64,000 nt of DNA from an uncultured Chloroflexia bacterium. GTDB taxonomy: Bacteria > Chloroflexota > Anaerolineae > Anaerolineales > UBA4823. The stretch is taken from the NCBI GenBank assembly GCA_963709875.1, contig CAVPYB010000005.1:56721-120720 (forward strand), written 5' to 3'. A program made the position numbers and the translations under genes. Below the pieces are notes generated by a model, which did no database searches, was not told the origin of the DNA, and saw only the letters and a program-made list of their open reading frames with translations. Of the stretch, positions 2,899 through 50,988 are shown in pieces (positions within the stretch are counted from its first letter, which is position 1; each line of letters starts with the position of its first letter).

Positions 2899-3063
2899 GT
2901 GATAAAGGTGCCACGCATGTAAATGTGCTTGGCACCAGCTTATTACCACCTGGGAGGTGTATGAACCTAAGTTGAATACCTGGTGCCTTGGCGTCTTAGC
3001 GGTGAGCAAGCCAATGGCAATATCAACAAACTCAGTGGTGGAAAACCGAAAGGAATTACCGTT

Positions 3064-3558
3064 ATGAAAACCATTCAATCTGCTCTATTCAATAGAACAC
3101 TTGCCAGGATACTGGTGACCATCATCGTTATCCTGCTGGTAATGGCATTTGCTATGCCTGTGCTGGCCTCCCGCGCTGAGGTGACCGGCGGGGCATTCCA
3201 CACTTTCGCCTCTGGTGTCGGGCGCGGCTATGCTATCTCCGGTCATGCCCACATGACCCGCACTGCAGACGGCAAGACCATCGTCAGCACGCATGCAGCC
3301 GGGTTGGCGGCGAATACCGCCTACGGCGTGCACGTGCACAACAAAGCCTGCAACGACTCCAACGGCGGCGGGCACTACCAGAACGAGGTCGGCGGCGCGG
3401 TGGACTCATACAACGAGATCTGGCCGCTCTTCACCACCAACGCCGCAGGAGTCGGGAATGGGAAGGCAGTACATGCTTATACTGCCCGTCCGGAAGCCCA
3501 GGCGGTGGTGATCCACGATACGGACGGAGCGCGCATCGCCTGCGCGGATTTGGAGTAA
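3064..3558 (+). CDS. sodC: Secreted Cu/Zn superoxide dismutase-like protein
   Basis: Signal peptide; YGVHVH..C..GGHY, AVVIH, GARIAC motifs; ATG at 3064 chosen for SD AAGGA. Confidence 0.75.
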   Translation: MKTIQSALFNRTLARILVTIIVILLVMAFAMPVLASRAEVTGGAFHTFASGVGRGYAISGHAHMTRTADGKTIVSTHAAGLAANTAYGVHVHNKACNDSNGGGHYQNEVGGAVDSYNEIWPLFTTNAAGVGNGKAVHAYTARPEAQAVVIHDTDGARIACADLE

Positions 3559-3562
3559 AGGG

Positions 3563-3599
3563 ATAAGGCAATAAGGTATAAGGCAATAAGGGATAAGGG
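3563..3599 (+). repeat. ATAAGG(CA) 7/8-mer tandem repeat after stop codon
   Basis: ataaggca ataaggt ataaggca ataaggg ataaggg. Confidence 0.8.
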
Positions 3600-3623
3600 A
3601 GATTTGGGAGTGGAGACTAGAGG

Positions 3624-4370
3624 GTGACGGATTATACGATCGTGACGGCTCGGGATGCCGAGTTCGAGGCACTCAGTAAGCAGGTGCACACCGGCGGGGG
3701 GCCGGTGTGCCTGGATTACGATGCGGCGGTCCAGCGCTGGTGGCCACTGTTGGATGAGACTTTCCCCGAGCACCAGTTCTGCCTGCTGGATGAGGCGAGC
3801 GGGCAGCCGGTCGCCATTGGCAACAGCCTCCCGCTGGCTTTCAGCGGGGTGCTGTCTGAACTGCCTGATGAGGGGCTGGACTGGGTGCTGGAGCAGGGGT
3901 TCTTGGATCGTGAGGCTGGCAGGCAGCCGACCTTGATGAGCGCCTTGTACATCGAGGTGGCCGAGGCGCAGCGCGGCCAGGGCGTCAGCGCGCAGGCGCT
4001 GAGCGTGATGCGGCAGATCGGTAGGCAGAAGGGCTTCCAGCAGCTGATCGCCCCGGTGCGCCCGTCATTGAAGGAGCGCTACCCGCTGATCCCGATGGAA
4101 GAGTATCTACGGTGGCAGACGGCGGAGGGTCTCCCGTTCGACCCGTGGCTGCGGGTGCACGTGCGGGCAGGCGGAAAGATACTGGGAGTCTGCCAGAGGG
4201 CAATGAGCGTGAGTGGGACGGCAGCCCAGTGGGCGGAATGGACCGGCATGGCATTCCCCAGCGATGGCAGCTACGTGATCCCGCACGGGCTGGTGCCTGT
4301 GGATGTGCGCGGCGAGCTTGGGGAATACGTCGAGCCGGGCGTTTGGGTGCTGCACGAGCTTGAGAGATAA
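3624..4370 (+). CDS. GNAT family N-acetyltransferase-like protein
   Basis: QRGQGVS acetyl-CoA loop, LIAPVRP, FDPWLRVHVRAGG, YVEPGVWV family motifs. Confidence 0.8.
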   Translation: MTDYTIVTARDAEFEALSKQVHTGGGPVCLDYDAAVQRWWPLLDETFPEHQFCLLDEASGQPVAIGNSLPLAFSGVLSELPDEGLDWVLEQGFLDREAGRQPTLMSALYIEVAEAQRGQGVSAQALSVMRQIGRQKGFQQLIAPVRPSLKERYPLIPMEEYLRWQTAEGLPFDPWLRVHVRAGGKILGVCQRAMSVSGTAAQWAEWTGMAFPSDGSYVIPHGLVPVDVRGELGEYVEPGVWVLHELER

Positions 4371-34600: not shown

Positions 34601-35864
34601 TCACAGATAGCGCAGCCACACATAAACGCTGGCGATGATCAGCGACACGAACGTTGTCACCAGACCATAGCGCAGGAAGGTACCAAAGCCGATCTGGTAT
34701 CCGCTGCGGGTGGCCAGGTTGGCGACGACCACATTGGCAGATGCCCCGACCAGGGTGGCATTGCCGCCCAGGCAGGCGCCCAATGCCAGCGACCACCACA
34801 GTGGCATGATGGGCATGGCACTCCCGAGATTTTCAACGATCGGTATCATCGTGGCAGTATAGGGGATGTTATCGATAATGCCGGAAGCAATGGAGGACAT
34901 CCAGATCAGCAGCATGGATGTGTACGCCAGGTTACCACCCGTGAACTCCAGGAGAGCCAGGCTGACTGTATCGATGATCCCCACAGTCACCACCGCCTCA
35001 ACCATGATGAACAATCCGATAAAGAAGAACAGCGTTGTCCACTCCACATCCCGTAGCGCATGGTGGACATCGCTGCGAGCCCACAGCAGCAGCAGCGTCG
35101 CGCCGGTCAGGGCGATCGTGGCCGGCTCGATATGCAATGCACCGTGGAACAGAAAGCCGAAGATCATCATAAAGGTGATCACTGCGCCTTTAGCAAGCAG
35201 CTTTTTATCGGTGATCAATGCTGTCGTATCCAGGGCGTTGATATCCAGCGAAACAGCCCCGTTTATGCTCAGATTCGCGCCGGAATAAGAACCAGCTCAG
35301 GCCGACGAATACCACCAGGATGGCAATTGCTGGCGGCGCCATATTCAATGCAAATGTAGAAAATGGGATATCAGCCGCACTGCCGATAAGGATGTTCGGT
35401 GGGTCGCCGATGAGTGTGGCAGACCCACCGATATTCGAGGCCAGGATCTCTGCGATGAGGAATGGCACCGGGCTGACTTTTAAGCTGGCGGCAGTAAATA
35501 GAGTTACCGGGGCTACCAGGATCACGATGGTCACGTTATCCAGCAGCGCAGACGCGACTGCTGTCACCAGGGATAAGATCACCAGGATGCGGAAGGGCTG
35601 GCCGCGCCCCAGCTGGACCGCTTTAACCGCGATCCATTGGAATATGCCGGTCTCTCGCAGCAGGTTGGCGATAATCATCATACCTGCCAGCAAGAAGATC
35701 ACGTTCAAGTCGATGGAATGGAAGGCGGTCTCCTGGTCGATTGCACCGATCAGGATCATCATGATCCCCCCTAACAAGGCTATGACAGTACGGTCGATAC
35801 GTTCTGAGACGATGACTGCATATGTCGCCAGGAAAATTCCTCCGACAATCCAGACCAGGCTCAT
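34601..35864 (-). CDS. ArsB/NhaD (P-protein-like) family transporter, frameshift near 35275
   Basis: SALLDNVT, ASNIGGSATLIGDPPN, VEWTTLFFF, IIDNIPY, LGGNATLVGASAN. Confidence 0.9.
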
Positions 35865-36760
35865 TCTTCGCCCTCTTCCGGAAAGGCATCCTGGTCGAAC
35901 TCCAGGCATACCGCCATTAATTCCAGCAGATTGACATAACCGATGATGTGATACTGGTCATCGACAACCGGCAGCCCCGGGACGCGATTTTCGTGCATGC
36001 GTTCGAAGGCTTCTTTGATCCGATCATCCATTTTTACCCAGACCGGGTCCTGCATGGAGTCTGCCGCAGTTCGCTTACGGCTCTCATCGGCATAGCGCAT
36101 AACGTCCTCGAGAGAGGTGATCTCGCTGAGGAATTCTTCCGGGTCGATATGGAAGAAGACGTCATTGGCAAGCTCGTTGAGGTTGAGCAGACCGAGCAGC
36201 CGTCCATTCTTGTCCACGACACAGGCGACGTGTGTTGTGGGGTGCAAGAACATCTCTTTCGCCACGTCCTGCAGGGATGTATCAGGGCTCACGATGGTTG
36301 GTGCTAGCGTGAGGCAATCCAGCACTTCAGACACCTTGGTATTGCGGTGTAGAGACCAGCTTGATTGCAGGATCGGGGCTGGCTCGACCACCTTCTGCTT
36401 GGGTCTGGTTTTGTATATGCCGCGGGTCAGGTGGATGGGCAGCACCATGATTATGCCGCTGTTTGGTCGGTCGAGCCCATCCATGACCCGTTCTGCCTCG
36501 GCGACTGCCTGCTCCATCAGGCTCTCCTCCTCGATTGCCGCCATCAGCGTCCGGCGGGTGAGCTCCTCAGTCTCGAACAGCCGGTCCAAGAAATCCAGAC
36601 CGACCTGGCTGAGCCAGGAGGTCGTCCGGTAGCCGCCGGTGCTCTCCAGGATCGTCACACCTGGCACACCAATCTCCCGCCAGACCTTCAAGATCTGTGG
36701 TAGGCGGTTAACGTCGTCCAATATGAGCATGACTAAATATGACATAAGCTTGATCTCCAT
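35861..36760 (-). CDS. PII-like domain fused to CBS domain pair
   Basis: N-terminal W..IGVPGVTILESTG...LDRPNSGI; C-terminal VVD..GRLLG and LPVVD..IIG. Confidence 0.8.
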   Translation of the reverse strand: MEIKLMSYLVMLILDDVNRLPQILKVWREIGVPGVTILESTGGYRTTSWLSQVGLDFLDRLFETEELTRRTLMAAIEEESLMEQAVAEAERVMDGLDRPNSGIIMVLPIHLTRGIYKTRPKQKVVEPAPILQSSWSLHRNTKVSEVLDCLTLAPTIVSPDTSLQDVAKEMFLHPTTHVACVVDKNGRLLGLLNLNELANDVFFHIDPEEFLSEITSLEDVMRYADESRKRTAADSMQDPVWVKMDDRIKEAFERMHENRVPGLPVVDDQYHIIGYVNLLELMAVCLEFDQDAFPEEGEE

Positions 36761-36782: not shown

Positions 36783-37868
36783 TTAGTCCTCGGGTATCTT
36801 TTGCAGGTAATCAGTAGCGATGCGGTTGGAAAGCACCAGGATCAGCGCAGTGATGATTGTGGCAACAACGACTAAAATCGGCTGCTCGAGAGCATCCCGC
36901 GGCCAGAGCAGCAGAGCCGGCAGCAGGAATACAGCCACACGTACGACTGCCTGCCACAGGGATTTTAGATGTATGAAAGAGGGCAATCCCAGCCGCATGC
37001 CAACCCAGATAGCGAGGACGCCCATTAGCAGGCCGATTGCAAGCTCGATGAGCAGCCGAATCGAGAGAGCCTGATGGGTCTGCCAGCCCAAGAACAAGAA
37101 CAGGATCAGCAGCGAGCCGAAGCCTGCCCACGAGTTCAGCGGCTGTGGGGTCAGCCTTCCTTGACCCCAAAACCCTTTGTATAGACCTATTCCCACGAAG
37201 CAGATGAGAGCGACCAGGGTCGCGCTCACCGCAGAAGCACCCATCAGGTATGCCAGCCAGTAGGCGGCATACAACTGACCAAGCGCCAGCCAATTGCGGA
37301 TGGCGGGCGGACGGTCCCTGGAGAGGTAGTATGCAAGCAAGGCGATTGCGACACCAATAGCAGCTCCGCTGAAGACATTTCCGAGGTATTGCCCTGGAGT
37401 TTCCAAAGTAGGTACAGTTTCTACCAATAAGATAATCAAGATCAATGGGCCGACCTGGCTGAAGTAGCTGGAAGAGCTCTCGGATTCCCCAGCCCGCCAG
37501 ATTACACTGGCGACGATCAAGCCGAAGAGCATGGCACCTGGCCAGAGCCGCACGTCACCGATGGCAAACAGCAGGCTGTACAGGCTTACGAGGATCAGCC
37601 AATAGAGTACACCGATATAGCTGCTCTGCCAGTCGCTGTAGAAGATGCGGCGGGCATTCTGCCAGAGCAGAAGCGGGATGCTAAACCCAATGATCATGTC
37701 CCAGGGGAGATTTACCTTAATTTGCGAGGGGATGAAGGCAAGCAGCAGCCCCACGGCGATTAAAATGATGGACAGCAATCGGTTGGGTGGTTTGGCGTTG
37801 ATCAGTCCCAAAAGGATTAGCAGTAAGAACAACGATATCGACAGGTCAACCATGCCATCTCCAGCCAA
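36783..37868 (-). CDS. Multi-pass membrane protein, distantly CPA1 antiporter-like
   Basis: ~12 TMs; IPLLLW, YWLAY.MGAS pattern. Confidence 0.55.
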   Translation of the reverse strand: MAGDGMVDLSISLFLLLILLGLINAKPPNRLLSIILIAVGLLLAFIPSQIKVNLPWDMIIGFSIPLLLWQNARRIFYSDWQSSYIGVLYWLILVSLYSLLFAIGDVRLWPGAMLFGLIVASVIWRAGESESSSSYFSQVGPLILIILLVETVPTLETPGQYLGNVFSGAAIGVAIALLAYYLSRDRPPAIRNWLALGQLYAAYWLAYLMGASAVSATLVALICFVGIGLYKGFWGQGRLTPQPLNSWAGFGSLLILFLFLGWQTHQALSIRLLIELAIGLLMGVLAIWVGMRLGLPSFIHLKSLWQAVVRVAVFLLPALLLWPRDALEQPILVVVATIITALILVLSNRIATDYLQKIPED

Positions 37869-37938
37869 TATTGATATTGCCAGATAGTTTCCACCCTATT
37901 GTATTATAGAATTAGATCGAACGAAATAACCGCGGAAG

Positions 37939-37974
37939 AAGCCCCTCTCTTGATCTATATCAGGAGAGGGGCTT
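37939..37974. terminator. Hairpin terminator after the multiheme gene
   Basis: aagcccctctcttgat..atcaggagaggggctt. Confidence 0.7.
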
Positions 37975-37978
37975 GGGT

Positions 37979-40379
37979 TCACCGGACGGTGGGCTGATGA
38001 GGGCGGCGCCATGTGGGGGGCGGCTCGTCGTCTTTCCAGCTCGAATTGTAGCTCGTCAAGATCAGGCGCATCGTCTGGTCAAACACACGTGTGATGACCT
38101 GCAGATAGCTCTCCCCAGGTGGTGTCCCGGAGCCGGCCAGCGGTGCCGGGGTGAGCCCGGACAGGCAGATCGTGCTCACGGGCAGCGGCAGGGGGGTCAG
38201 ACCTGGCCGCGGCATGATCCCGGGCTGGGGGGTCGGGGTGGGTATGAGTTTCGGGTCCCGCGGCTGCAAGGCGGGTGTCTGCGTGGGGTAGGCGGTCAGG
38301 GTGGTGACAGGGTCCGGCTGCAGGGTGCCGACGACCGGCGTCAGCGCTGCCGTGGGATCGACGTCCGATGGCGGGAGCGTTGGTGTGCTGGCAAGCCCCA
38401 GGGTGGGCGTGGGCTGTGGCGTCGGTGTGGCAGTCTGCTGCGGTGTGGCAGTTGGCGCGGGGGTGGCGGACTGACCGGGCTTCGTCCTCGGGGTAGGCGT
38501 GTTGGTATAGGTCGGCGATACCGACAGCGTTGCGGTAGGTGTGAGGATGATCCGCCAGGTATCGGTGGTGTGGCATTTCGAGCACTGGCCGCGCGGGTGC
38601 CCTTGCGGGTGTGCGTGGCAGGCGTTGCAGGTGGTGTAGCCGGTGTGGTTGAAAGTGTAGTCCGACCAATCTGTGGTGGTGTGGCAGTCGCTGCAGGCTC
38701 CAGGCCAGTGCCCGCTGGGGGCGGTATGGCAGGTGCTGCATTGGGTATAACCGGAATGGTCGAATTCGACGGCATACCACTCAACTGTATTATGGCACTT
38801 GGAGCACTGCCCGCCGTAGTGCCCGGCGGGTGGCGCATGGCATGCAAAGCAGTCGCTGGTGCTGGAGTGGTAGCGGGAGGCATTCTCCCAACTGTTCACG
38901 TCGTGACAGGCGTAGCAGTCGTCGCTGTAGTGGCTGTCCGGCTCGTCTGCGGCATGGCAGTCGATGCAGTACAGGTAGCCAAGGTGGTCGAAGCTGGTTG
39001 CACCCCAATCCTCGAAGTTGTGGCAGGTGGAACAGGTCCCCGGGTAGTGTCCACCAGGAGGATTGTGGCAGGTGGCGCACTCCCTGACCTCCGAATGGTT
39101 GTAAGAGATCAGCCGCCAGCCACGGGTGGTGTGGCAGGTAGAACAGCTGCCGCTGTAATGGTTATCCGGGCTGGAGTGGCATCCCTGGCAGTCACCGGCA
39201 TTGCTGTGGTAGAAATCATCCGGCACCCAAGTGCGGGTGTTGTGGCACTGGCTGCAGTCCCCGCTGTAGTGCCCGGAGGGTTTGGAGTGGCAGGTGGTGC
39301 AGGATATTGGCAATACATGGTTGTAGCGGTGTACTTCCCATGCAACGGTGGTGTGGCAGAGCGAGCACTGGCCCGGCTGGCTGCCCAGGATATGACCGTC
39401 CGGCACTTGCGTGCTGTGGCAGAGCAGGCAGTCTTCCAGGTGCTCGTGGTTGACGATGGCATCCGGCCAGTAGTCGTAGTTCGAGTGGCAGTCCGTGCAG
39501 CGCCCCGGATAGTGGTTCTCAGGCAGCTGGTCCAGGTGGCAGGATTCGCATTCCAGGACGTATTCATGCCCGAAGTAGGCCTCGCTCCAATCGGTGGTGC
39601 TGGTATGGCATAGCTGGCAGTCGCCGGGGTAGTGGTCGGGGTCGTGGATGACCTCCACGAAGCTCAGCATCTCATACAGCGACAGGAAGATCGGGTCCGG
39701 CTCGATGCGCACCAGGGGGATATCCCCGGCGTGGCATGAGATGCACTCATAAATCCCCTTATGGTCGAAGGAGACCGGCTTCCAGCTTCCGGAGTCGTGG
39801 CATTCTTCACAGCGATCGCCGAAGTGGTCTGGATATAAGTCGTTGGCCAGAGCGGGATCCGGCTGCTCGACCCGCTTGTAAATCTCGACGAAAGCGCGGT
39901 CGAGCAGCTCATCGGCGGTGAGCGGGATGCCGTGGCAGGATTCACAGGTAGAACTGGTGCCCGTGTAGCGCCCATCGCCGTGGCAGTTCAGGCATTGCGA
40001 ATCGTCGTGACTTCCGTCCAGCGGGAAGTCTTGATGGGAGACCGGTTTATCCAGGAAGGGGACCACCTCGGGTGAGACGTTGGGCGGTGACTCGCCCAAC
40101 GGGCTGGCCGGAGTGCCGGTGGGGATAGCCGGTCCGCCATCCCCACTGCCTGACTGGAGCAGGTCGCCGGAGGTGCTGACCAGACCTGCGAGGCGCAGTG
40201 TGGATGAGCGCGATCTGAGCAGACGCCGGACTGCCGCTGGAGGCTGCCAGCATCTGCGGGCTGTCACTGGAGGCATTCAGACCGTCGATGATATTACACA
40301 GGCGTTCTGTCCAGCCGGCTGCCAGCAGGGCAGTGACCAGCAGGAACAGGATCAACCAGATGATAAGCGGGTGTTTCAT
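37979..40379 (-). CDS. Large multiheme c-type cytochrome (23 CxxCH) with N-terminal anchor and Pro/Thr-rich tail; frameshift near 40200
   Basis: 23 CxxCH counted in ORF 37979..40276; N-terminal TM/signal in ORF 40047..40379. Confidence 0.9.
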
Positions 40380-40385
40380 GGCAGC

Positions 40386-41269
40386 TTACCTCCTCACTTT
40401 GCTGACCGGAAAGGCGGGGATCAACCCACTCGCCAGGCTGTCCTCTAACGGATTGCCGCTGGTTCCGATCAGACCTTCGACCATCAGCCGCTCAGCCTCA
40501 CCAGACTGCCCAGTGGGGTGGCAATCTGCGCAGGCCTGGTAATCGAGGATGTCCTGCGCCAGGTGGACTTCTTCCATCGGCTGCGGCTGGTGGTCGTGGC
40601 ATTCATAACAGGTATGGGTGTAGTAGTTCTCGACATGGCAGGTCTGGCAATCCACCTTACCCTGACCGCCGTGATCTAGATAGAAAGTATGCCGGGTGAG
40701 ATAAGCCGGAGTCCAGGCGACGGTGGTGTGGCAGCGCTCGCAGCTCAGCCCGAAGGTGCCCAGGTGGATGGGCGGATCTTCGTGGCAGGCGACGCAGTCG
40801 TGTGGGGCGACTTCCAGGTATGCCTCACCCATCTCGTAGGCGGTCGGCACGAGCTCGAGCGGGCCGGCTTGCTCGGCGATCTGTGCTGCCAGGTCCCAGT
40901 CGGCGTAGCGGATGAAATCGACCAATTCGGAGATCTGGTAATCGTTGAGCATGCCGCCTTCGTCTATGTGCCAGGCAGCCATCTCCGAGCCGTGGGCGGC
41001 GCGGGCGATGGTGCGGAAGAGCAGGTCGGGGTCGACTTCGGTCAGAGCGCGAGGTTGTCCAGACCGGGCATTGCGCCTACTCCCTGACCGTCGTCCCCGT
41101 GGCACAGACGGCAGTGATTGGTGTAGATTTGTGCGCCTTCCACAACCGCCTGCTGGCGGTATACCCCCTGGACGGACTGCATGCGTGCGTCCTCTTGCAG
41201 GGCATATACCGGCAGGGCAATGATGAAAACGACCAGGGCGATCAGTGTAATGAAGGTGTAGCGGTTCAT
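40386..41269 (-). CDS. Membrane-anchored hexaheme cytochrome c (class I domain plus 5-heme domain); frameshift near 41043
   Basis: GAQIY..HCRLCHG..G.G and M.AW...GG.L..QI; then CVACH, CERCH, CQTCH, CYECH, CADCH. Confidence 0.85.
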
Positions 41270-41290
41270 GATGATCTGCTCGCTTCCCGG

Positions 41291-41819
41291 CTAACCGTAG
41301 ACCAGTTGGTCTGGGGAGTAGCTCTCCCGGCGCTGGAGCTGGCTGGTATCCACCTTCACCACCGCCGAGTCGATGCGTACCGGGAAGATATCCAGGGCAC
41401 GCGGTACAGGTTTGCTCTCGAAATCGCCGTAAACATCGAAGCTGGAGGCATGGCACGGGCACAGAGAATCGCTCGTTCGCACCGTCCCATTTGACGCTGC
41501 AGCCCAGATGCGGGCAGCGGCGGTAGATGGCCAGGAAGCCGCCTCCCTGCTCGCGGACCAGGTAGAAGTTCTCTTCAGGAAACTCGGTCACCGTACCGGG
41601 CGGGAAATTCTCGACCGGACCGGCTTTGATCGTACCGCCGAACTCTCCCTCCAGGCTGCGCGAACGCAGGAACATGAATCCGGCTGCACCGGTCTCCACG
41701 ACAGCCAAAGCTCCCAACGCTCCCAGGCCAATGCGCAGGAAATTGCGCCGGGTGAGCGGTGAAGGCTGTGCCTCCTCGACCGGTTGAGCCCTGTTTCCAG
41801 ATGATCTTTTCTTATTCAT
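41291..41819 (-). CDS. Rieske 2Fe-2S protein with Tat signal; frameshift near 41463
   Basis: TRRNFL, CPHLGC, CPCHASSFD, PRALD. Confidence 0.9.
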
Positions 41820-41869
41820 TGCAGTCTCTCCCAGAATTTCAGCAACATTATCCAGTCTCTCGTCAATGC

Positions 41870-43225
41870 TCAAAACGGCAGGATCAAAGCCATATTCTCA
41901 CCGCGTAGGAAGATACCGATCAGGGTCAGCACAACCAGGCTGGCTGCCAGGAAGCTGACCAGGCCGACCATCGCTTCGCTGTGACCCGCTTCTCGACCAG
42001 TAACGTGCAGGACCAGGCGGATCAGGGCGTAGACCAGCGCCAGAGCTGCCAGTGTGAGCGCCAATGGCAGCACGATATCGTTCACAGCCGGCGCCAGAGC
42101 GGGCAGCCAGGTCTCGGGGTCGAGCCAGTATTCATCGGCAGCCACTGCCAGTGGTACGGCAACCAACGCGAGCAGGCTGCCCATCAGCGCAGCCCAGCGC
42201 CCTCCAGTTGAGCGAAAATAGACGCCGATATCCTCTGATTTGCGGTCGATATACGGGACAGCCAGGATTAATCCTGTCAGCAGCCCAACCAGCAGGATCG
42301 CTGCCAGCGGGTGCATGTGCAGCAGCAGCTCCTGCAAGCCCATAAAGTACCAGGCAGCTTTAGCCGGGTTGGGCAACTCGAAGGAGTCTGCCAGATCGCC
42401 CAGTGGCGCAGGTCGCAGCATCGTCCAGATCAGGACCGCGATCAGCACCACCAATGCCACGGCGATCTCCCTCTCCACCAGGTGCGGCAGGGTGGTCAGA
42501 CGTTCCTGGCGCTCCCCGGGCACCCCGATTGGCTGGGAGATGCCGCCGTTCTTGCGCACCTTCCAGAAATGGTAAGCGCTCATGCCCACCAGCAGCAAGG
42601 GGATGAAGACCACGTGCAGGGCGTAGAAGTTGCTCAATGCCCCCTGCCCGACGGTATAGCCGCCCAGCAGCAGGCTGCGCAAGCCGATCCCGGCAGCCGG
42701 GATGTACGACAGCAGGCTGGTGCTGACCGTGATCGCCCAGTAGGCCAGCTGGTCCCAGGGCAGCAGGTAGCCGGTGAAGTTGGCTCCTAACACGAGCAGC
42801 AGCAGGGCAACACCGACCATCCAGTTCATTGTGCGACCAGCCTTATAGCCGCCGGTGAAGAAAACCCGCAGCAGGTGCAGGAATACGGATACCACAAGCA
42901 GGTTGGCAGACCAGTGGTGCACGCCGCGCACCAGCGAGCCGAAGGCCACCTGCAACTCGATCTGCTGGATGCTGATATAGGCGTAGTCAACACGCGCGTC
43001 GTAGCGGAAGATCAGCAGTAGACCGGTGATCCCCAGCAGGAGCCCCAGCACCGCCGATATGCCGCCCAGCCCCCAGGTATAGGTGAAGCGCAGCGCCCTG
43101 GCGGGCACATTGACCGGGTGCAGGTGCAGCACCAGGTTGTTAGCGACCAGCTGCAGGTTGCTCCGGTCGCCCTTGTCCGTATAGATCAAGCGTTGCTTCC
43201 AGTTTGTTCGTGCTCTCTCAGCCAT
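41870..43225 (-). CDS. Cytochrome b (fused b6 plus subunit IV type) of a Rieske/cytb complex
   Basis: RGVHHW, FLHLLRVF, FTGYLLPWDQ.AYWA, FYALH, YHFW; PAKAAWYF. Confidence 0.93.
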   Translation of the reverse strand: MAERARTNWKQRLIYTDKGDRSNLQLVANNLVLHLHPVNVPARALRFTYTWGLGGISAVLGLLLGITGLLLIFRYDARVDYAYISIQQIELQVAFGSLVRGVHHWSANLLVVSVFLHLLRVFFTGGYKAGRTMNWMVGVALLLLVLGANFTGYLLPWDQLAYWAITVSTSLLSYIPAAGIGLRSLLLGGYTVGQGALSNFYALHVVFIPLLLVGMSAYHFWKVRKNGGISQPIGVPGERQERLTTLPHLVEREIAVALVVLIAVLIWTMLRPAPLGDLADSFELPNPAKAAWYFMGLQELLLHMHPLAAILLVGLLTGLILAVPYIDRKSEDIGVYFRSTGGRWAALMGSLLALVAVPLAVAADEYWLDPETWLPALAPAVNDIVLPLALTLAALALVYALIRLVLHVTGREAGHSEAMVGLVSFLAASLVVLTLIGIFLRGENMALILPF

Positions 43226-43250
43226 TGGACTCTCCCCAGAATCATTTCTT

Positions 43251-44744
43251 TCAGTTCTCTAAATGGATGAATGGTAAGTACAGCGGATATACAGGGGGCT
43301 GCTCCACGCCTTCCAGTCCGTGGTAGACAAATACTCGCCCCATGATGGTCTTTTCATCCCTGCGGTACAGCGGTGCACCGACCAGCAGGTCGGCGAAGCC
43401 GTCCTGGTTCACGTCACCGGCATTTGCAGCCGAGAAGCCGAACCAGGAATCGTTCTTATTGCCCTCCACCAGCCAATGCGGGGATGTGTCCAAACCCGCC
43501 GGGCTGCCTTTGTAGATAAAAGCTGCACCTTCGTAGGGCTGGTCCTGCGTGTAGTGATGCGCGCCGACGATCACCTCGTCACAGCCGTCGCCGTCCAGGT
43601 CGGCAGCAGAGGCGACCGAGACGCCGAATCCCGAGCCTGCCTGCCCGCTGTAGCCGATCCAGCGATTTGAAGCGGACAACCCCCCAGAAGAGCCAAAATA
43701 TACGATGGCAGCGCCCTCATCACCTAGACCGGACGGGTTGTCGTATCCCGGTGCACCGATGACGATATCGGCGTAGCCGTCGTTGTTGATGTCACCGGCG
43801 GTCGAGACCGCCTCGCCCAACCGGGCGTAGCTTTGCTCTCCGTTGACTACCAGTGCCGGTAGAGCAGACAGACCGCTCGCAGAGCCAAGGAAGACCAACG
43901 CCTGGCCTTCCTCGACCTGTACGGTCTCGTGCAGCGGAGCACCGATGACCACGTCATCATAGCCATCGCCGTTCACATCCCTGGCGCGGCTGACCGCGCT
44001 GCCGAGCAGGGCTTCACCCTGATCGCCTTCGATAGTCCACGCCGGCACAGTCCCCAGCCCGGCTGGAGAGCCGAGATAGAGGAAAACTGCCCCTTCGGAG
44101 GCCTGCCCGTTGCTGTAGTACGGAGCACCGGCGAGCAGGTCATCGCAGCCATCGCCGTTCACGTCCCCGGCGCTGCTGACCGAAGCGCCAAGCTGGGCGC
44201 TTTTCTGGTCGCTCTGGACGCTCCAATCCGGCAGCAAGGATAGACCGGCTGGCGAGCCGTAGTAGACGTATACAGCGCCTTCTTCGGGATGGTCCTGGTT
44301 AAAGCGCGGCGCACCGATCACAACGTCGGCGTAGCCATCGCAGTTCACATCCCCGGCAGTGGAGACGGAATGCCCAAAGCGCGAGCCTTTGAGCCCGCCG
44401 CCGGCGGACCAAACCGGGTCCTCCGACAGCCCTTGCGGGTTGCCTTTAAACAGGAATGCCACCCCTTCACGGTAGACATCGAGCGAATACTGTGAGGAAC
44501 CGATGATGACATCCTGGTAGCCATCGCCATCCACGTCCCCGGCGCTGCTGACCGAGTAGCCATATTCGGCGCTCTGCTGCACGCCATCGGTGATCCAGTC
44601 CGGGTAGAGGGTCATGATATTAGAAACGAATGATTGCGGGTTTACCGGTGGATGAGCGAGTGCAGGCGTAGCGAAGCTGCCGGTCAGCCCGACCGGGAGC
44701 AGCAGCATGAGGATGAGTGCGGATAGCGTCAGTGTGCGAGACAT
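43251..44744 (-). CDS. Secreted FG-GAP/integrin-alpha repeat protein
   Basis: Signal peptide; 7 repeats (F/L)G.SV..AGDVNGDG..D...GAP; C-terminal LYLPFI. Confidence 0.92.
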   Translation of the reverse strand: MSRTLTLSALILMLLLPVGLTGSFATPALAHPPVNPQSFVSNIMTLYPDWITDGVQQSAEYGYSVSSAGDVDGDGYQDVIIGSSQYSLDVYREGVAFLFKGNPQGLSEDPVWSAGGGLKGSRFGHSVSTAGDVNCDGYADVVIGAPRFNQDHPEEGAVYVYYGSPAGLSLLPDWSVQSDQKSAQLGASVSSAGDVNGDGCDDLLAGAPYYSNGQASEGAVFLYLGSPAGLGTVPAWTIEGDQGEALLGSAVSRARDVNGDGYDDVVIGAPLHETVQVEEGQALVFLGSASGLSALPALVVNGEQSYARLGEAVSTAGDINNDGYADIVIGAPGYDNPSGLGDEGAAIVYFGSSGGLSASNRWIGYSGQAGSGFGVSVASAADLDGDGCDEVIVGAHHYTQDQPYEGAAFIYKGSPAGLDTSPHWLVEGNKNDSWFGFSAANAGDVNQDGFADLLVGAPLYRRDEKTIMGRVFVYHGLEGVEQPPVYPLYLPFIHLEN

Positions 44745-44782
44745 ATTTCTTTCCTAGACCCTCAGGGTCTGGGTAGGTATTT

Positions 44783-44917
44783 GGGTGCCCGCTCGCCTGG
44801 AGAGAGACTGAGCCTGCTGGACCAGGCTGTTTCGAGATCGGGGAGAAGATCTGCGAGCGGGCACCCCCGGTTAGTTGCCTGAGGACTGGCAGTCCATCAA
44901 AGAGGACTGCCAGTCCT
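44783..44917. repeat. Two 14-bp inverted repeats in the intergenic region
   Basis: gggtgcccgctcgc/gcgagcgggcaccc (44783-44866); aggactggcagtcc/ggactgccagtcct (44882-44917). Confidence 0.75.
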
Positions 44918-44928
44918 GGTAGGTACTA

Positions 44929-47900
44929 TTAACGTACGATGGTTGGCAGGTGGATCTGGTACAGGCTCTCCAGCACAACCACCTTGGTGACCTGGTCTAC
45001 AGACCAGTTGCCTTCATTGTCCTTGACCTTGAAGGTGATGGTATGCGTGCCAAGGCTGAGGCTGGTGACCGGGATGCGGATTACCTTCTCGCCGCCCAGC
45101 ACGCCTTGCAGGTCGGAGTTCCACTGGATCTCGACGATGCCGTCGCCGATATGGTCGAGGTCCCTGCCGGTGCCTGCCAGCACCAGGTCGCCGCCGCGGC
45201 TGTGGGCAACCACGCCGTCGCTGACATACAAAATGCCGGCGATGGGCATGTAGTCCTGGGTGGAGCCATCCGGGAGATACAGCATGCGGCGGAAGATGAT
45301 GTCGCTGTCGTAGATCAGCTCGTGACCGTCCTCGTCGATCTCCTCTTTCCACTGGTTCCAGACCGCGTACATGAAGGTGCCGCCGGGGTTGGCGAGCATG
45401 CTGGCTTCGCCGGACAGCTCGTCGGATTTGTTCTCCAGCCACGGCCAGCGGTCGATCAGGTCATCATCGTTTGTGGTGGTGTAATCCATCAGCTCATACT
45501 CGTCGCCGAAGATCGTCGCCCGGCTGTAGTACAGATCGAGCGGTACGGCTTCGCCCTCGGCTACGGTGGTGTTGTCGCCGGTCTCATAGACCATGAAGAA
45601 CTTATCCGGGGCGCGCACTGCATCATCCGTGTACGGCAGATCGGTAAAGGAAATGCCGTTGTCCGTCAGCCAGTCTGTGCTGATGGTGCTGTACAGCTTA
45701 AGACCGCCGGTAGGTGAATAGCGCGGGTCGAGGATTGTGATCTTGTTGCCGATGAGCTGCGAGACGTTGCGCCCCTGCTCGAAGGCGCCGGCCGCGTAGG
45801 TGAAATCGGTGCCCACGCAGTCGCCGGACGCAGTGCTAACGCAGTAGTTCTCGGTGGTGGTGACGCCGGCACCGCCTAACGAGCCAGGTGTGGTGGTCCA
45901 GGTCAGACCGCCGTCGAAGGAGCGGCGCACGTACAGGTTGTAGTGGTCGTTGCCGACCGAGTTGGCCTTCCAGTTAGGCGACCAGGCGTACATGATCATA
46001 ACGATGTCGCCGTCCAGGAAGCCGCGGTGCCCCTTGGCAACGTCGAAAGGATTCTCCCAGGGCTGGTCGTCCAGGTCGCTGTCACCTTCGCAGCCCGCTA
46101 TCGCCCCGCTGCCATCGCACTGCCGCCATTCGGTCACCTTCGGGAAGCTGGTCGTCCCGCCGAGCCAGGGGAAGATCGCCGCGCAGGGATCGTTGCCGCT
46201 GGCGCCGTCGCAGGTGACGATGGTGCTTCCGGAGATGCTGATGGCCGGGTCGAGGCACACGCCCTGCAGGTAGTTGGGGTTCAAGCCGTCGTCGTAAACC
46301 CAGTTCCCGCACTCCATATTCTCGAAGGCATAGGGGTTATCAACCGCAGGATCGAAGCCGACCGGTACGAGCACGCGGCGCAGCATGATGTCCGCCGGAC
46401 CACCCTGGTTGATGATGCCCTGCTTGTAGATCAGCATGGCAGACAGACCGCTGGTCGAATTGTAGGCTGCATCTACCGAGTTAGTGGTCAGTGCAAAGCG
46501 GCGTGAGATCTCGGTCAGATAGTACTCATAACCACGCGTATCGACTTCGACCGGGAAGAAATCGTCGGTGGTCATGTCGATTGCGGGCTGGTTCAGCATT
46601 CCGCCCTGGGCGACGAAGTCGTGATCGAACATGTCGAAGCTGTGATACCAGACGTCCTTGCCGATATCGATCGGCTCGAGAGTGGTCGGGTCGACGATAT
46701 CACCGAGGGCTTTTGTCTCTTCGTAGGCCATCACCACCCAGGCGCTCTTTTCCACATTCCCGTCACCATCCTCATCCACAGCACCCACCGGGGTGTAGGG
46801 CTTGAGGTTCAGGCGCACGCGCGTAGAAGCCACACGGCCGTTCAGCAGGCGGTTATCATCCGTTTCGCACAGGATCAGTGATGTGCCGCCTGGATTGGTC
46901 CAGGATACCTGGGTCGTGCAGAAGTCCGAAGTCGCCGGTAGGCGCATCGGGCAGGGCGAGCGGATCGAGAGAAGCCAGGTCGTCGAAATCGACGTAGCAG
47001 TACGGGTCGCTGCCGGTTGCCTTGCACATATTATTATCCGTCAGGCGTACCGGCATGGCCATCGGTACGTAGGACTTGGGCATGGTCGTGCCCAGGTAGT
47101 CTTCCATAGCAACTGCACCGACAACGTTATCGACTTCGAATACCTCGTCGAAGTCAGCGTAGCTGATATAGGAATACCAGATATCAGTCTTCTGGTTGGC
47201 GATGGCGCCGCTCCAGCCCTCGCCCGGTCCTAACCCCTGACCGGGGCGCAGACCCTCGGGGTCTTCCTGCCAGGTGAGGATGCAGCCGGCGTCCTTGGCG
47301 CAGTCCACCGCGGGCAGGTTGGCGTCCCGCCGCCCGGAGGTCAGCCGCTCGGGCTTGGCCCACATCACGTAGCTGGATTCAACCGCGCCTGTGGAGGGGT
47401 CATCGCCTGCCAGCAGCTTGCCGCGGGTAGTCCAGATGCAGGAGAAGGGGATCTCGCCGATCTCGGGGAATCCCAGCTCGGTATAGTCCACCGAGCGCTG
47501 GGTTCCAGCGATCCCAAACAAGTCGTACAGGTACATCTCATCCACCCCGTAGGTGACCTTCAGGTCATCCAGGTATGCAGCCTCTGCAGCCGGATCGACG
47601 GTGTAGAGCGGAGTGCCGCCATCGCAGTACTTGCTTGCCCAGGCGATGAAGATACGGTCGCCGGCAACCTGGTGGACGACGTTATGCACGTCGCCCGGGT
47701 AGGGGTGGCCGTTCTGCAGGGTAAACGAGGTCAGGTCAGCAGAACGCGATAGGTTGGTAGTCTTCCAGCTGGTGCCGTCATCCAGCGAGACGCCGACATA
47801 GGCATCAAACTCCCCGAAGCTGATGCCACCCATGATGGAATTCCCAAGTGGCTCTTCATGAGGCATGTCGTCGATATACACCGAGATGAGCGGCTTGGCG

Positions 47901-48160
47901 AAATCGCGCGCCGGGTAGTCAATGGCAGCGCTCCCATCAGCCAGCAGATAATTATCCACCGGGCCGACGGTGCCATCCGACGCCTGGGCGGGGACGTAGA
48001 AGTCCATCATGTAGATGGCAGCCTTCTCCGTCTCGCCTTCCGGCGTCTTGGAAATATTGCGGCGGAACAGCAGTCCATCCTCAGCCAGCACCGTAGTAGT
48101 GATCAAGCCGAGGACGGCGATAACCGCCAGGATTATGATGAATTTCTTTTTTGCATCCAT
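44929..48160 (-). CDS. Large secreted acidic protein, choice-of-anchor O-like, with PKD-like C-terminal domain; frameshift near 46945
   Basis: Signal peptide; SLDDG.SW..TNLSRSA, WQEDPEGLRPG.G.GPGEGWSGA..KTDIWYS, AKGHRGFLDGD, RRSFDGG.TW; GTHTITFKVKDN.GNWS; ends IHLPTIVR. Family name from recall. Confidence 0.72.
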
Positions 48161-48302
48161 TGAACTTCCTCCACGATCTGATAATCAAGCCTTATATATG
48201 GTCAGGTTTGGAATTGAAGCAGGCAGCCCGGTTGGGTCTCCTCATAAGCCCTCCTTGTCCAGGTAAGACAATTTGCGAAATTGTCCTACGTAGGTTATAT
48301 CT

Positions 48303-48512
48303 TCAGCGATCAACAGATAATTCATCCTCAAGCCATGCGCGTCCTGGCTCCTCAGAGCATTCTTCCAGGAAGCTGCACAGCTGTGGCAAGCTCGAAAAAT
48401 ATTGGCACTGACCGGTTGAAATGTTTTGCAGCGAAGCCCGCCATTCCCCATCAATGGTTTCTCTCCACAGGCGTAAAAGGTAGGATTGGTACAGCCAGAG
48501 ATTTGATCTCAT
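48303..48512 (-). CDS. Small conserved hypothetical protein ('YxSYLLRLWR' family)
   Basis: YQSYLLRLWR..EWRASLQ..TG...F.SL..L..FL; paralog of 13530..13769. Confidence 0.72.
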   Translation of the reverse strand: MRSNLWLYQSYLLRLWRETIDGEWRASLQNISTGQCQYFSSLPQLCSFLEECSEEPGRAWLEDELSVDR

Positions 48513-48561
48513 TGTCAGGTTTCCATGCCCTGGAGACGTACATACAAGTACGGCTGAATTG

Positions 48562-48615
48562 ATTATCCTCATGCCGCGTGAATGCTGTGTTATAAAGGCG
48601 TGAAATTAGCGTGAA
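48562..48615 (-). promoter_or_regulatory. SARP/BTAD-type activator site plus -10 box of the cytochrome unit
   Basis: GCGTGAA at 48576, 48598, 48609 (22- and 11-bp spacing); proximal copy 8 nt from GATAAT on the minus strand. Confidence 0.65.
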
Positions 48616-48705
48616 AATAATCACGGATTCTGTTGTACAATATATGTGATACAGTTTGCGCTTTGGCACATTGATAGAGCGGCAGCGAGGTATTTTGGCG
48701 GGGAA

Positions 48706-50988
48706 ATGGACCGACTCTCGATTTATTTATTGGGACCTTTTGACGTACAACTCGGGGATAAGAGCCTTGCGCGGGCATTCCGCACGCGCAAAGAGCGCGC
48801 CCTGCTGGCATATCTTGCTGTCGAGCAGCGCCAGCAGCACCGTCGTGAGGCTGTGGCAGAGCTGCTCTGGCCGGAGAGACCGGAGGGCTACGCCCGCACA
48901 AACCTGCGCCAGGCGCTCCTCGGGTTGCGCAGGGCGATCGGTGAGGGATTTATCCGTGTCTCGGATGAAATGATCCAGGTCGAGCCTTCGCAAACGATCT
49001 GGCTGGATGCGGATGCCTTCCGGACCAGCTACCGGCAGACCCTCAGCCACGCCCATCGCAGTGTGGACAGCTGCCCGGAGTGTGCCAACAGCCTTCAGGC
49101 GGCTGTCGAGTTCTACCGCGGGGATTTCATGGCGGATGTCTACCTGGGGGATGCGCAGGGATTCCAGGAATGGTGCGTGTTCAACCGCGAGCAGCATTTC
49201 CGCTATCTGCTGTCTTCCCTGCAGAGTCTGAGCGCTTTCCACCAGGGAAAGCGTGATTACGAGCTTGCGCACCAGTATGCCTGGCGGTATGTCAACCTGG
49301 CTCCACTGGAGGAGGCCGCCCACCGGCAGCTGATGACCGTCCTGGCGCTGAGCGGCAGGCGCACCGCGGCCCTGGAGCAGTTCCATGCCTGCAGCAGCCT
49401 GCTATCGAAGGAGCTGGCGGTTGAGACTTCGGCAGAGACGCAGGCATTGTACGAAAAGATCCGCGATGGGAAGCCGGTCATCGAGGCGCCAGGCAGCGGA
49501 AGTCTGAGGATCCCGAACAACCTGCCCGCCGGGCTGACATCTATTTTTGGCAGGGATGATGAGCTGGATGCGCTCGACGACTGTCTCGTCAAGCCTGCCT
49601 GCCGGCTGATCACGCTGGTGGGCATGCCCGGCGCCGGCAAGACACGCCTGGCTTTGCAGACCGCCCGGCAGAGGTTGGATAGTTTCCCGGATGGGGTCTG
49701 GTACACTGCCCCGGGCAGCCGCCATCCCGAAGGTACCCTGGCGGATAAGCTGCTCGCCAGCCAGGGCATCACCGTCCAGCTCCAGCTTTCACCCAAGGAA
49801 CAGCTGCTCACCAGGCTGCGTTCGATGCGCTGCCTGCTGGTGCTGGATAATTTCGAGCTGCACCTGGATGAGACCGGGCTGCTGATCGAGCTGCTGCAGC
49901 ACGCGCCGCGGGTAAAGATTCTGCTGACCACCCAGGAAAGGCTCAACTACCAGGCTGCCTGTGTCTTCCAGATCGCAGGATTGCCGTGCGGGGAGGCGCC
50001 ACCCACGGGCGCAGCTCATGAGACCCCCTCGGTAAACCTTTTTCTGGCGCGGGCGCAGCACAGCCGCAGCGGATTTACGCTGAGCGATGAAAACGCCGGC
50101 TATATCGCGGACATTTGCAGGAAAGTGGAGGGCCTGCCGCTGGCGATCGAGCTGGCGGCGGCAGCGCTGCGGGATCACAGGTGTGAGGAGATCGCCGCCA
50201 GCCTGGACGAGGGGCTGGGTATGCTGAGCACCTCCATGCTGGATGTACCTGCCGTGCATAGAAGCATGCGCAGCGCGTTCGAACGCCCGTGGGGCCGGCT
50301 GAGCCGGGGGCAGCAGGACCTGATCGTCCGCCTGGCCAGTTGTACCGGCGAGTTTACTCCCTCGGAAAGCGGCGCCAGCCAGGCAGAGCTGGATGAGCTG
50401 CTGGACCGCAGTCTGCTCGAGACGCGTGCTCCAGGGCGTTTCCGCATGCACCCGCTTGTGCGGCTGTTCCTGCTGGAAAAAACAGCCTCGAGCAATGCTC
50501 TGTTGACGCCCGGTCCGGCAGAGCTTCCGGGCAGGCATATGTTCTGGGACCGGCTGGAGCACATGCTCGCACGGGCTAGGCGTTACGCGCAGACCGCGGC
50601 GGTCATCCTGCTCACCACTGCAGATGTGGGCGGGCAAGCCGACATGGCTGGCAGCCAGGACCAGAAGGTGCTGCGGCAGTTATTACGCTGCCTGCGCAAG
50701 AGCGATACTGCTGTCCTGCTGGATCGCGGCCTATATGGGATTATCCTGGAGGATCTCTCAAGGGCGGAGGACAGCCTGCTGGTGGGCGATAAGTTCACCA
50801 AGGCGCTGAGTCCATCGCCTGGCTCTGACGATCCTATGATGCCTCGGTTCCATATGGGGATCAGCATCTACCCGCGCGATGGGCAGGAAGCTCGGATGCT
50901 GGTCGAGCGCGCAGAATCCGCCATGCAGCAGGCGGCAGAGACGGGCGAGTGCTGCAGGATGTATGGGGGAATAGAGAGTAGAGAGTAG
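48706..50988 (+). CDS. SARP-family regulator: wHTH-BTAD, NB-ARC-like NTPase, degenerate GGDEF
   Basis: RALLAYLA, LLWP..ARTNLRQAL, YRGDF, PLEEAAHRQLM; GMPGAGKT, LLVLDNFE, GLPLAIELAA; MGISIYPRDG..L...AESAM. Confidence 0.9.
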   Translation: MDRLSIYLLGPFDVQLGDKSLARAFRTRKERALLAYLAVEQRQQHRREAVAELLWPERPEGYARTNLRQALLGLRRAIGEGFIRVSDEMIQVEPSQTIWLDADAFRTSYRQTLSHAHRSVDSCPECANSLQAAVEFYRGDFMADVYLGDAQGFQEWCVFNREQHFRYLLSSLQSLSAFHQGKRDYELAHQYAWRYVNLAPLEEAAHRQLMTVLALSGRRTAALEQFHACSSLLSKELAVETSAETQALYEKIRDGKPVIEAPGSGSLRIPNNLPAGLTSIFGRDDELDALDDCLVKPACRLITLVGMPGAGKTRLALQTARQRLDSFPDGVWYTAPGSRHPEGTLADKLLASQGITVQLQLSPKEQLLTRLRSMRCLLVLDNFELHLDETGLLIELLQHAPRVKILLTTQERLNYQAACVFQIAGLPCGEAPPTGAAHETPSVNLFLARAQHSRSGFTLSDENAGYIADICRKVEGLPLAIELAAAALRDHRCEEIAASLDEGLGMLSTSMLDVPAVHRSMRSAFERPWGRLSRGQQDLIVRLASCTGEFTPSESGASQAELDELLDRSLLETRAPGRFRMHPLVRLFLLEKTASSNALLTPGPAELPGRHMFWDRLEHMLARARRYAQTAAVILLTTADVGGQADMAGSQDQKVLRQLLRCLRKSDTAVLLDRGLYGIILEDLSRAEDSLLVGDKFTKALSPSPGSDDPMMPRFHMGISIYPRDGQEARMLVERAESAMQQAAETGECCRMYGGIESRE

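Follow-up and report, generated by a model that had tools for sequence, protein, structure and literature searches.

Large multiheme c-type cytochromes have been noticed by genome surveys in the Anaerolineae, bacteria that abound in sediments, aquifers, anode biofilms and activated sludge. To our knowledge, no Anaerolineae protein with at least 20 hemes has been characterised, and we know of no mechanism for moving electrons across the Anaerolineae envelope. The Figure 5 legend and the discussion of one survey (PMC7399161) present aligned large Anaerolineales cytochromes with differing heme numbers, call this variation unexplored and suggest that the proteins act in extracellular electron transfer; 'repeat', 'duplication' and 'indel' are words that the paper never uses. 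A passage of a second survey (bioRxiv 10.1101/2021.08.23.457424) places in Anaerolinea 88 of the 124 proteins of the Chloroflexi supergroup with at least 20 hemes, and Chloroflexota are not among the heme-rich metagenome-assembled genomes (MAGs) in the part of PMC11495043 that lists them. Ardenticatena maritima exchanges electrons with an electrode, and its largest cytochrome carries 7 hemes, according to sections of PMC5808234. The closest solved protein is GSU1996 of Geobacter sulfurreducens (PDB 3ov0), a 12-heme 'nanowire of hemes' for which passages of PMC10138318 describe four c7-type triheme domains in a single chain, a linear, crescent-shaped heme array with edge-to-edge distances of 3–5 Å, and one His-Met heme per domain. 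Here we analyse a 23-heme c-type cytochrome gene in a 64,000-nucleotide stretch of an uncultured Chloroflexia bacterium of the order Anaerolineales (GCA_963709875.1, contig CAVPYB010000005.1; the whole stretch is called the window). Its product belongs to the c3/c7 superfamily and would be a modular heme wire made of one chain; the surveys had probably noticed its family before. The gene and the parts of its product are as follows.

37979..40379, minus strand: 23-heme c-type cytochrome gene, 799 residues without an extra base of the assembly at 40217
40047..40379 and 37979..40276, minus strand: the same gene as assembled, two open reading frames (ORFs) split by a single frameshift
40311..40373, minus strand: N-terminal hydrophobic segment, residues ~3–23, a signal anchor or signal peptide (Kyte-Doolittle)
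39551..39994, minus strand: irregular head with hemes 1–5, spacings 16, 45, 22, 42 and 23, in a pattern ('aLbLb') kept family-wide
38552..39550, minus strand: nine diheme units with hemes 6–23, 37–43 residues each
38117..38551, minus strand: Pro/Thr-rich linker past the last heme, from composition and an AlphaFold2 pLDDT below 50 at model residues 548–690
38039..38113, minus strand: predicted C-terminal amphipathic helix, model residues 690–714 (AlphaFold2, pLDDT ~63–65)

The longer of the two ORFs (37979..40276) contains 23 CxxCH motifs, which take up 46 of its 48 cysteines, whereas in 2000 shuffled versions the average was 0.19 motifs and no version had more than 3. The figure of 23 hemes, proposed in an earlier reading made from the sequence alone (the sequence-only reading), is therefore right. 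From the N-terminus, the motif-to-motif spacings are those of the head, then 17, 23 and 21, and then 22 and 15 in turn (with one 17). The nine diheme units measure 40, 43, 37, 37, 37, 39, 37, 37 and 37 residues in order, and residue autocorrelation peaks at lags 37 (0.30) and 74 (0.22). The sequence-only reading had described a ~33-residue diheme repeat: its motif, CxxCH-x2-P-xx-H-(Y/W)-x-G-x-CxxCH-x4-W-x4-(F/Y)-x-H, is correct, but the period is 37 residues, since the shorter figure counts the span of the motif without the 5-residue linker. Judged from its sequence, the diheme array is old. The six units of 37 residues share 32–57% amino acid identity and 43–60% nucleotide identity with one another, and a nucleotide identity of only this level rules out recent slippage as the source of the repeats.

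Like GSU1996, the window protein belongs to the c3/c7 superfamily and strings repeated small multiheme modules together in one polypeptide. The modules themselves differ: a 37-residue diheme unit (spacings 15 and 22, so four hemes per 74 residues) in the window protein versus a triheme domain in GSU1996 (318 residues for 12 hemes in chain 3ov0_A), and in the printed alignment with 3ov0_A some CxxCH motifs of the query face chain positions without CxxCH. The window protein also has a putative N-terminal tether, a Pro/Thr-rich (PT-rich) tail and a cytochrome b/Rieske operon, unlike GSU1996, and comes from the Anaerolineae, not the Desulfuromonadia. It uses 18.5 residues per heme in the 37-residue units and 20.7 from the first to the last motif, with a family median of 20.2; for comparison, the small tetraheme cytochrome 1m1p_A has 91 residues for 4 hemes. 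This is about the lowest protein-to-heme ratio among the comparators used here. We propose that ~20 residues per heme is too little polypeptide for a globular enzyme, and that the protein would therefore be essentially a strand of close-packed hemes.

Outside the motifs, the ORF contains 28 histidines. In an alignment of the window protein with 70 homologues, 23 of these are conserved, one for each of the 23 hemes (21 in 93–100% of the 71 rows and two in 77–79%), and the remaining five recur in no more than 4% of rows. The heme region has one methionine, conserved in 1% of the rows, which sets the protein apart from GSU1996 with its His-Met heme in every domain. The 23-heme protein matched no enzyme family in Pfam or NCBIfam, and NCBIfam gave no family at all. 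Looking for the marks of catalytic multiheme proteins (NrfA, HAO, octaheme reductases and MccA), we found none of the special heme motifs searched for in the ORF (CxxCK, CxxxCH and CxxxxCH), no family match, and as many conserved histidines as hemes; MccA itself appears only as a weak row of the family profile (4rkm, E 7.4e-5). Because there is one conserved histidine per heme, no conserved methionine, no CxxCK and no enzyme family match, all 23 hemes are likely bis-His ligated, with no catalytic site. This agrees with the sequence-only reading, which had noted about one extra histidine per heme and no evident catalytic heme.

Pfam assigns the 23-heme protein to the c3/c7 multiheme superfamily through Cytochrome_C7 (PF14522; 43.3 bits, cut-off 24.8) and Cytochrom_c3_2 (PF14537; 40.2 bits, cut-off 25). 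A profile of the 71 family members, compared with solved chains, gave GSU1996 first (3ov0, E 1.1e-15), followed by OmcA (1.8e-13), the 16-heme cytochrome Hmc (2.9e-12 and 1.4e-11), MtrA (6r2q_A, 9.2e-8) and small tetraheme cytochromes (~1e-6). The match to 3ov0_A covers 282 profile positions (345–626, against chain residues 20–318), and the best match with the single sequence is also to GSU1996, in the form of its hexaheme fragment (3ouq, E 0.0032). AlphaFold2 gave a model from residue 33 onwards with a mean pLDDT of 56.8 and a pTM of 0.28 (71-row alignment), with the heme region mostly at 50–80 per ten-residue block, and a model of hemes 9–23 with a pLDDT of 74.3, a pTM of 0.38 and almost no regular secondary structure (115-row alignment). 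With the whole model, a Foldseek search of the PDB gave no row at E <= 10; with hemes 9–23 it gave three non-significant rows, the best being MtrA (6r2q_A, E 1.3). In a VIA-align search of 48,161 chains, the whole model was matched at its C-terminal helix only (best Z 3.1), and the model of hemes 9–23 gave no row with Z >= 2. Since the heme-free models have almost no secondary structure, these blank searches say nothing about the fold.

With MtrA and with the Pfam family Paired_CXXCH_1 (PF09699), the window protein shares a heme-dense chain and paired CxxCH motifs ~40 residues apart. Unlike MtrA, it has no porin sheath as a partner and carries 23 hemes rather than 10. PF09699, a doubled-CxxCH model of 41 positions, gave no hit at E <= 0.01 in the window protein; a 26-heme paralogue in the same genome does pass its cut-off (35.1 vs. 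20.6 bits), and two of the 120 best homologues carry the family in their precomputed annotation.

These homologues come from a search of 5.8 billion protein clusters, in which 1636 matches at E <= 1e-3 were obtained among the 8000 candidates scored. Named matches are all annotated as 'hypothetical protein' (one as 'DUF5667 domain-containing protein') and come from Anaerolineae or Chloroflexi MAGs. The 120 best homologues have 18–37 CxxCH motifs, with 23 hemes the commonest number (25 proteins), followed by 25 (21), 27 (15), 22 (13), 29 (12), 21 (9), 26 (8) and 24 (7); other counts are rarer. Their commonest spacing string is 'aLbLb', or a near variant, followed by (ab)n, and heme number thus varies mostly through the number of diheme units. 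These comparisons support a heme number that can be extended within the family. The sequence-only reading had suggested an extensible wire with its length tuned by repeat number, and had proposed counting repeats across homologues: the count shows neither a fixed heme number nor a known enzyme family, and unit number does vary between species, so that 'tuned' holds in an evolutionary sense only. The five closest entries (P0001–P0003 and the translated loci L007 and L008; 50–71% identity) all have 23 hemes; these entries are not independent, as the two translated loci may duplicate database hits. Of 40 related genomes, 25 match at E <= 1e-3; 24 of the 40 belong to the same family, and 16 of these have a match. 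In an even sample of the phylum, one further genome of 200 had a match at E <= 1e-30 when the five best candidates per genome were scored with this query; the family was thus not found in most of the Chloroflexota searched with the window protein.

Most homologues (106 of the 120) have a head of 185–205 residues before the first heme, annotated in some as DUF5667 (PF18915). The orthogroup of the window protein has a shorter head (120–138 residues in P0001–P0003) and a longer tail (194–216 residues), and Pfam detects no DUF5667 in the window protein. A hydrophobic segment within the first 50 residues is present in 117 of the 120 homologues. In the 799-residue protein it is the sole such segment: the Kyte-Doolittle mean over 19 residues exceeds 1.6 only in windows starting at residues 1–10, which places it at residues ~1–28 and agrees with the hydrophobic N-terminus noted earlier. 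On our preferred reading, this segment would hold the protein at the cytoplasmic membrane. A lipoprotein was considered and rejected, as the cysteine after the hydrophobic segment (RLC) is not lipobox-like by eye and P0001 has no such cysteine.

At the other end, the tail after the last motif is 197 residues long, with 41 prolines and 40 threonines, close to the ~190-residue PT-rich tail of the sequence-only reading, which proposed that the tail may be glycosylated or wall-associated; the description as PT-rich does not hold for the last ~45 residues, which are not PT-rich and include the predicted helix conserved in the orthogroup. Tails of at least 30 residues occur in 100 of the 120 homologues, and in 82 of those 100 proline and threonine make up at least 35%, so a PT-rich tail is, by composition, a family trait. 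The C-terminal helix motif is shared by the orthologues P0001 and P0003 of two genomes of the same genus (G001 and G002) and is not seen in the other tails listed. The Pro-rich end PPPTWRRP, which follows the helix, is kept in the closest orthologues and absent from the wider family. The tail of P0002 (71% identity) is His-rich and not PT-rich; it looks like a PT tail read in the wrong frame, i.e. a frameshift in the record.

Genes upstream of the 23-heme gene on the same strand suggest where its electrons may come from. They are, going away from the gene:

40386..41269, minus strand: cytochrome c with six CxxCH motifs and an N-terminal hydrophobic segment; frameshift near 41043, 293 residues when corrected, unbroken in G001 and G002
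41291..41819, minus strand: Rieske iron-sulfur protein, RR in the N-terminal region (TRRNFL), cluster boxes CPHLGC and CPCHAS; frameshift near 41462
41870..43225, minus strand: cytochrome b with b6-like and subunit-IV-like parts fused, 451 residues (Pfam Cytochrome_B, 145.1 bits)
43251..44744, minus strand: secreted FG-GAP repeat protein, 497 residues (Pfam FG-GAP, 207.5 bits, 7 stretches), between the BNR/PKD gene and cytochrome b
44929..48160, minus strand: BNR/Asp-box and PKD-like surface protein of ~1,050–1,090 residues with an N-terminal hydrophobic segment (Asp-box motifs by eye)

In the direction of transcription, the operon reads cytochrome b, Rieske protein, hexaheme cytochrome and, as its last gene, the 23-heme cytochrome. 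Gaps are short: the Rieske ATG (41819) follows the end of cytochrome b (41870) after ~50 bases, the hexaheme gene follows Rieske after 21, and the 23-heme gene follows the hexaheme gene after 6. A cytochrome b, a Rieske protein with both cluster boxes and c-type cytochrome genes therefore stand in one operon, as in a quinol-oxidising module. A scan of 37600–48800 for promoters and terminators found sites at numbers not above those in shuffled sequence (2 vs. 4.2 and 8 vs. 5.1), and none at the operon borders. As assembled, the broken Rieske ORF scores just under the Pfam cut-off (19.9 vs. 20.3 bits). Because the genome has four cytochrome b loci, the operon is a dedicated module and not its sole bc-type complex. 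Another of these loci (C1:346877-352078) adjoins frames with 10 and 4 CxxCH, and cytochrome c assembly genes lie a few kb away (C1:357920-365655); a cytochrome c assembly gene is recognised in the genome by PF01578 (131.7 bits), which together with the N-terminal hydrophobic segment lends indirect support to export of the 23-heme protein and covalent attachment of its hemes. Rieske/cytochrome b modules with multiheme c subunits include the Geobacter ext cluster with ExtP and ExtQ, and the nearest NCBIfam models of the window cytochrome b are ExtP (NF040969, 256.9 bits) and ExtQ (NF040970, 56.4 bits). The window protein stays below the curated equivalog cut-offs (290 and 150) and so is neither; it also has no porin or outer-membrane part beside it, and its partner is the 23-heme chain.

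The BNR/PKD gene is split in the window into ORFs of 434 and 672 residues, with a frameshift within 46856–46947, and is a single ORF of 1053 residues in a related locus (L027, 4119–7280). Its product reaches 19 bits with Pfam BNR, below the cut-off of 27, and matches no Pfam family above cut-off; the ESM Atlas leads to BNR/PKD clusters at 0.77–0.83. To see how far this arrangement is kept, we searched 76 related loci with the window proteins and counted the 38 genome-contig loci with at least 7 kb upstream of the large cytochrome. These loci were chosen by one family peptide pattern, with one genome per species, and are related to one another. Upstream and on the same strand, a BNR/PKD gene is present in 37 of the 38, FG-GAP in 27, a cytochrome of the hexaheme type in 21, cytochrome b in 20 and Rieske in 19. 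The gene arrangement thus recurs across the Anaerolineae, and no neighbour of the large cytochrome is more constant than the BNR/PKD gene. Syntenic ORFs in other species have 12–43 motifs, the lowest numbers probably coming from broken long-read ORFs.

In taxon, in having at least 20 CxxCH, in variable heme number and in the proposed link to extracellular electron transfer, the window family resembles the large Anaerolineales and Anaerolinea cytochromes in the survey passages cited above (PMC7399161; bioRxiv 10.1101/2021.08.23.457424), and it is likely the same family, matched by description and not by sequence. Those passages differ from the present account in containing no diheme repeat, one-to-one distal histidines, head-plus-(ab)n layout, cytochrome b/Rieske operon or synteny with BNR/PKD and FG-GAP genes. 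A search of titles and abstracts, with subscription journals and supplements largely outside its reach, likewise found no description of the diheme unit, the one-to-one histidines, the operon or the synteny.

Taken together, our preferred reading, which we hold with moderate confidence, is that the 23-heme protein is a tethered, single-chain heme conduit that carries respiratory electrons from a dedicated menaquinol-oxidising module away from the membrane. Menaquinol would be oxidised at the cytochrome b/Rieske module, and electrons would pass to the membrane-anchored hexaheme cytochrome and from there to the head of the 23-heme chain. They could then hop from heme to heme, away from the membrane and through the envelope of a probably monoderm, filamentous Anaerolineae bacterium, to a wall-distal or extracellular acceptor, possibly with the help of the co-conserved FG-GAP and BNR/PKD surface proteins. 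The data show the motifs, the conserved distal histidines, the operon with its synteny, an intact gene and a unit number that differs between species; we infer how the hemes are ligated and that they pack in a line, where the protein sits, which way electrons flow and what accepts them. A linear chain of 23 hemes with the packing of GSU1996 would span roughly twice the distance that GSU1996 does; a rough estimate, not computed, is ~20 nm, which is the scale of a cell wall.

Several points weigh against a conduit. The AlphaFold2 models are of middling confidence and were built without hemes, so that linearity rests on profile similarity to GSU1996. Cleavage of the hydrophobic segment as a signal peptide would leave the protein untethered. 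The term 'monoderm' is taken from literature on a relative (sections of PMC5808234) and would apply here by analogy. With Rieske/cytochrome b as the donor, the acceptor should be of fairly high potential, which fits soluble oxidants as well as minerals. As the cytochrome b/Rieske module is absent from 18 of the 38 related loci, the family can do without it. Ardenticatena maritima, in those same sections of PMC5808234 the sole cultured electroactive relative in print, has at most 7 hemes per protein, which makes the family's link to extracellular electron transfer a proposed one. Finally, GSU1996, the closest solved relative, is discussed in the relevant passages of PMC10138318 as a periplasmic electron store and not as a conduit.

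The last point leads directly to the alternative that survives best, though we regard it as unlikely: an electron store, or capacitor, in which 23 hemes mainly buffer electrons from the quinol module when acceptors are scarce, with no conduction across the envelope. The best solved match is to a protein that those passages of PMC10138318 describe as a periplasmic reservoir or capacitor, and the genomic heme pool is large, with 17 open frames (stop to stop) of at least 4 CxxCH and 165 motifs in total. However, the near-constant tether and the PT-rich distal linker look like spacing or positioning devices that a store need not have, and neither does a store need the near-universal pairing with a secreted BNR/PKD protein or the frequent one with FG-GAP. 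Storage and conduction are in any case compatible with one another.

A conduit might also run the other way. The same chain could serve electron uptake: Fe(II), a cathode, a partner cell or another outside donor would supply the electrons, and the chain would pass them to a Rieske/cytochrome b module working in reverse, or to an oxidase. The anatomy would serve either direction, and bc-type complexes work uphill in iron oxidisers. A related filamentous Chloroflexota isolate exchanges electrons with electrodes in both directions (sections of PMC5808234). Sequence sets no direction, but Rieske/cytochrome b complexes usually oxidise quinol, and no iron-oxidation marker was seen beside the operon, where no search aimed at such markers was made. 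On this evidence, we rate inward flow as somewhat less probable even than a store.

A third alternative makes the protein a subunit of a polymeric filament, with chains stacked head to tail as in OmcS, OmcE and OmcZ to give a wire longer than one chain. The family profile has a weak match to 7lq5 (E 0.0013), an entry titled only 'Cytochrome c' which we take to be OmcZ, and chains might dock through the C-terminal helix that the orthogroup conserves. A membrane tether and a ~140-residue disordered linker fit a stacking subunit poorly, however, and with as many conserved distal histidines as hemes no heme would need a ligand from a neighbouring chain, which makes a filament highly improbable. 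Least credible of all is a decaying pseudogene in a dead operon, as might be read from the 23-heme, hexaheme, Rieske, BNR/PKD and CitMHS transporter genes each being split as assembled: two of the breaks are missing from otherwise identical contigs of public runs and full ORFs return when the letters are removed, orthologues are unbroken in two short-read genomes, and the pattern of indels fits long-read assembly.

The evidence on the reading frame is as follows. As assembled, the longer ORF has 765 residues, and the hydrophobic start, MKHPLIIWLILF..., lies in another frame, beginning at 40379. We compared the stretch 37900–43300 with Logan contigs of two public runs, an RNA library from a sediment metatranscriptome (X1) and a DNA run (X2). 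A contig from each lacks one base at 40217 and otherwise has 0 differences to the window. Dropping this letter gives a single ORF of 799 residues, 40379..37979, with all 23 motifs kept; the sequence-only reading had given this extent for the gene and had spoken of a corrected ORF, rightly in both respects. The orthologues in G001 and G002, both short-read genomes, have unbroken frames of 819 and 806 residues (stop to stop) with 70% and 50% identity and the same start. With the extra base missing from the read contigs, the ORF restored and the orthologues unbroken, the frameshift is an assembly error and the gene is intact. In the upstream hexaheme gene, an X1 contig lacks 2 letters at 41043, and the corrected ORF has 293 residues from its Met and 6 motifs. 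The two runs contained 0.19 and 0.11 of the words of the stretch; their contigs miss much of it, including the larger part of the repeat array and of the PT tail, and of the five split genes the read contigs bear on the breaks at 40217 and 41043. These five genes lie within ~13 kb: the CitMHS transporter (34601–35909, with the break at 35205–35218), the 23-heme gene (40217), the hexaheme gene (41043), the Rieske gene (41462) and the BNR/PKD gene (46856–46947). The simplest reading of them is that they carry indel errors of a long-read assembly, which here consists of 14 contigs. As the public-run contigs lack two of these breaks (40217 and 41043), genes in this genome should be called with tolerance for frameshifts. 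X1 contigs identical to the window also span portions of the 23-heme, hexaheme and cytochrome b genes (within 39819–42700), which is no more than a hint that these genes are transcribed in nature, given that DNA may also occur in RNA libraries.

Returning to the outward conduit, the two secreted repeat proteins conserved beside the heme chain suggest that it belongs to a larger apparatus at the surface. Tentatively, and as an extension that we find possible but doubtful, the chain may be one part of an Anaerolineae-specific apparatus for crossing the envelope, in which a tethered heme chain has its reach set by the number of diheme units, a BNR/PKD surface protein and an FG-GAP propeller hold or terminate the chain at the surface, and about half of the lineages supply their own Rieske/cytochrome b quinol oxidase, wired directly to the chain. 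Such an apparatus, so far undescribed, would be the counterpart, in monoderm filamentous bacteria, of the porin-cytochrome conduits of Gram-negative metal reducers. The locus amounts to a testable wiring diagram, made up of a cytochrome b/Rieske module, a hexaheme adaptor, a single-chain heme strand of modular length and two conserved surface proteins. The BNR/PKD protein, as the most constant partner of the heme chain, may merit a study of its own, and for engineered protein wires the 37-residue diheme unit would make an attractive minimal module.

Some further observations concern the surroundings of the operon and the rest of the genome. Downstream of the 23-heme gene by 110 bases lies a gene for a 361-residue polytopic membrane protein without a Pfam family (36783–37868, minus strand). 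It was considered as another constant partner and rejected: it adjoins the orthologue in L007 (85% identity) and was not found in L008. Upstream of the cluster and divergent from it is a BTAD/NB-ARC/GGDEF regulator (48646–50988, plus strand), and in the equivalent cluster of L027 BTAD/PAS regulators flank the FG-GAP gene (113–1255 and 2851–4020), which hints at a shared type of regulator for the two clusters. The 26-heme paralogue is on contig 14, near open frames (stop to stop) with 8, 10 and 18 CxxCH. No cytochrome b was present among the ORFs scanned at this second cytochrome cluster (C14:178968-186694, L018), in which frames with 18, 26, 8 and 10 CxxCH lie on one strand, with a split pyridine-nucleotide-disulfide oxidoreductase between them and a two-component system adjoining.

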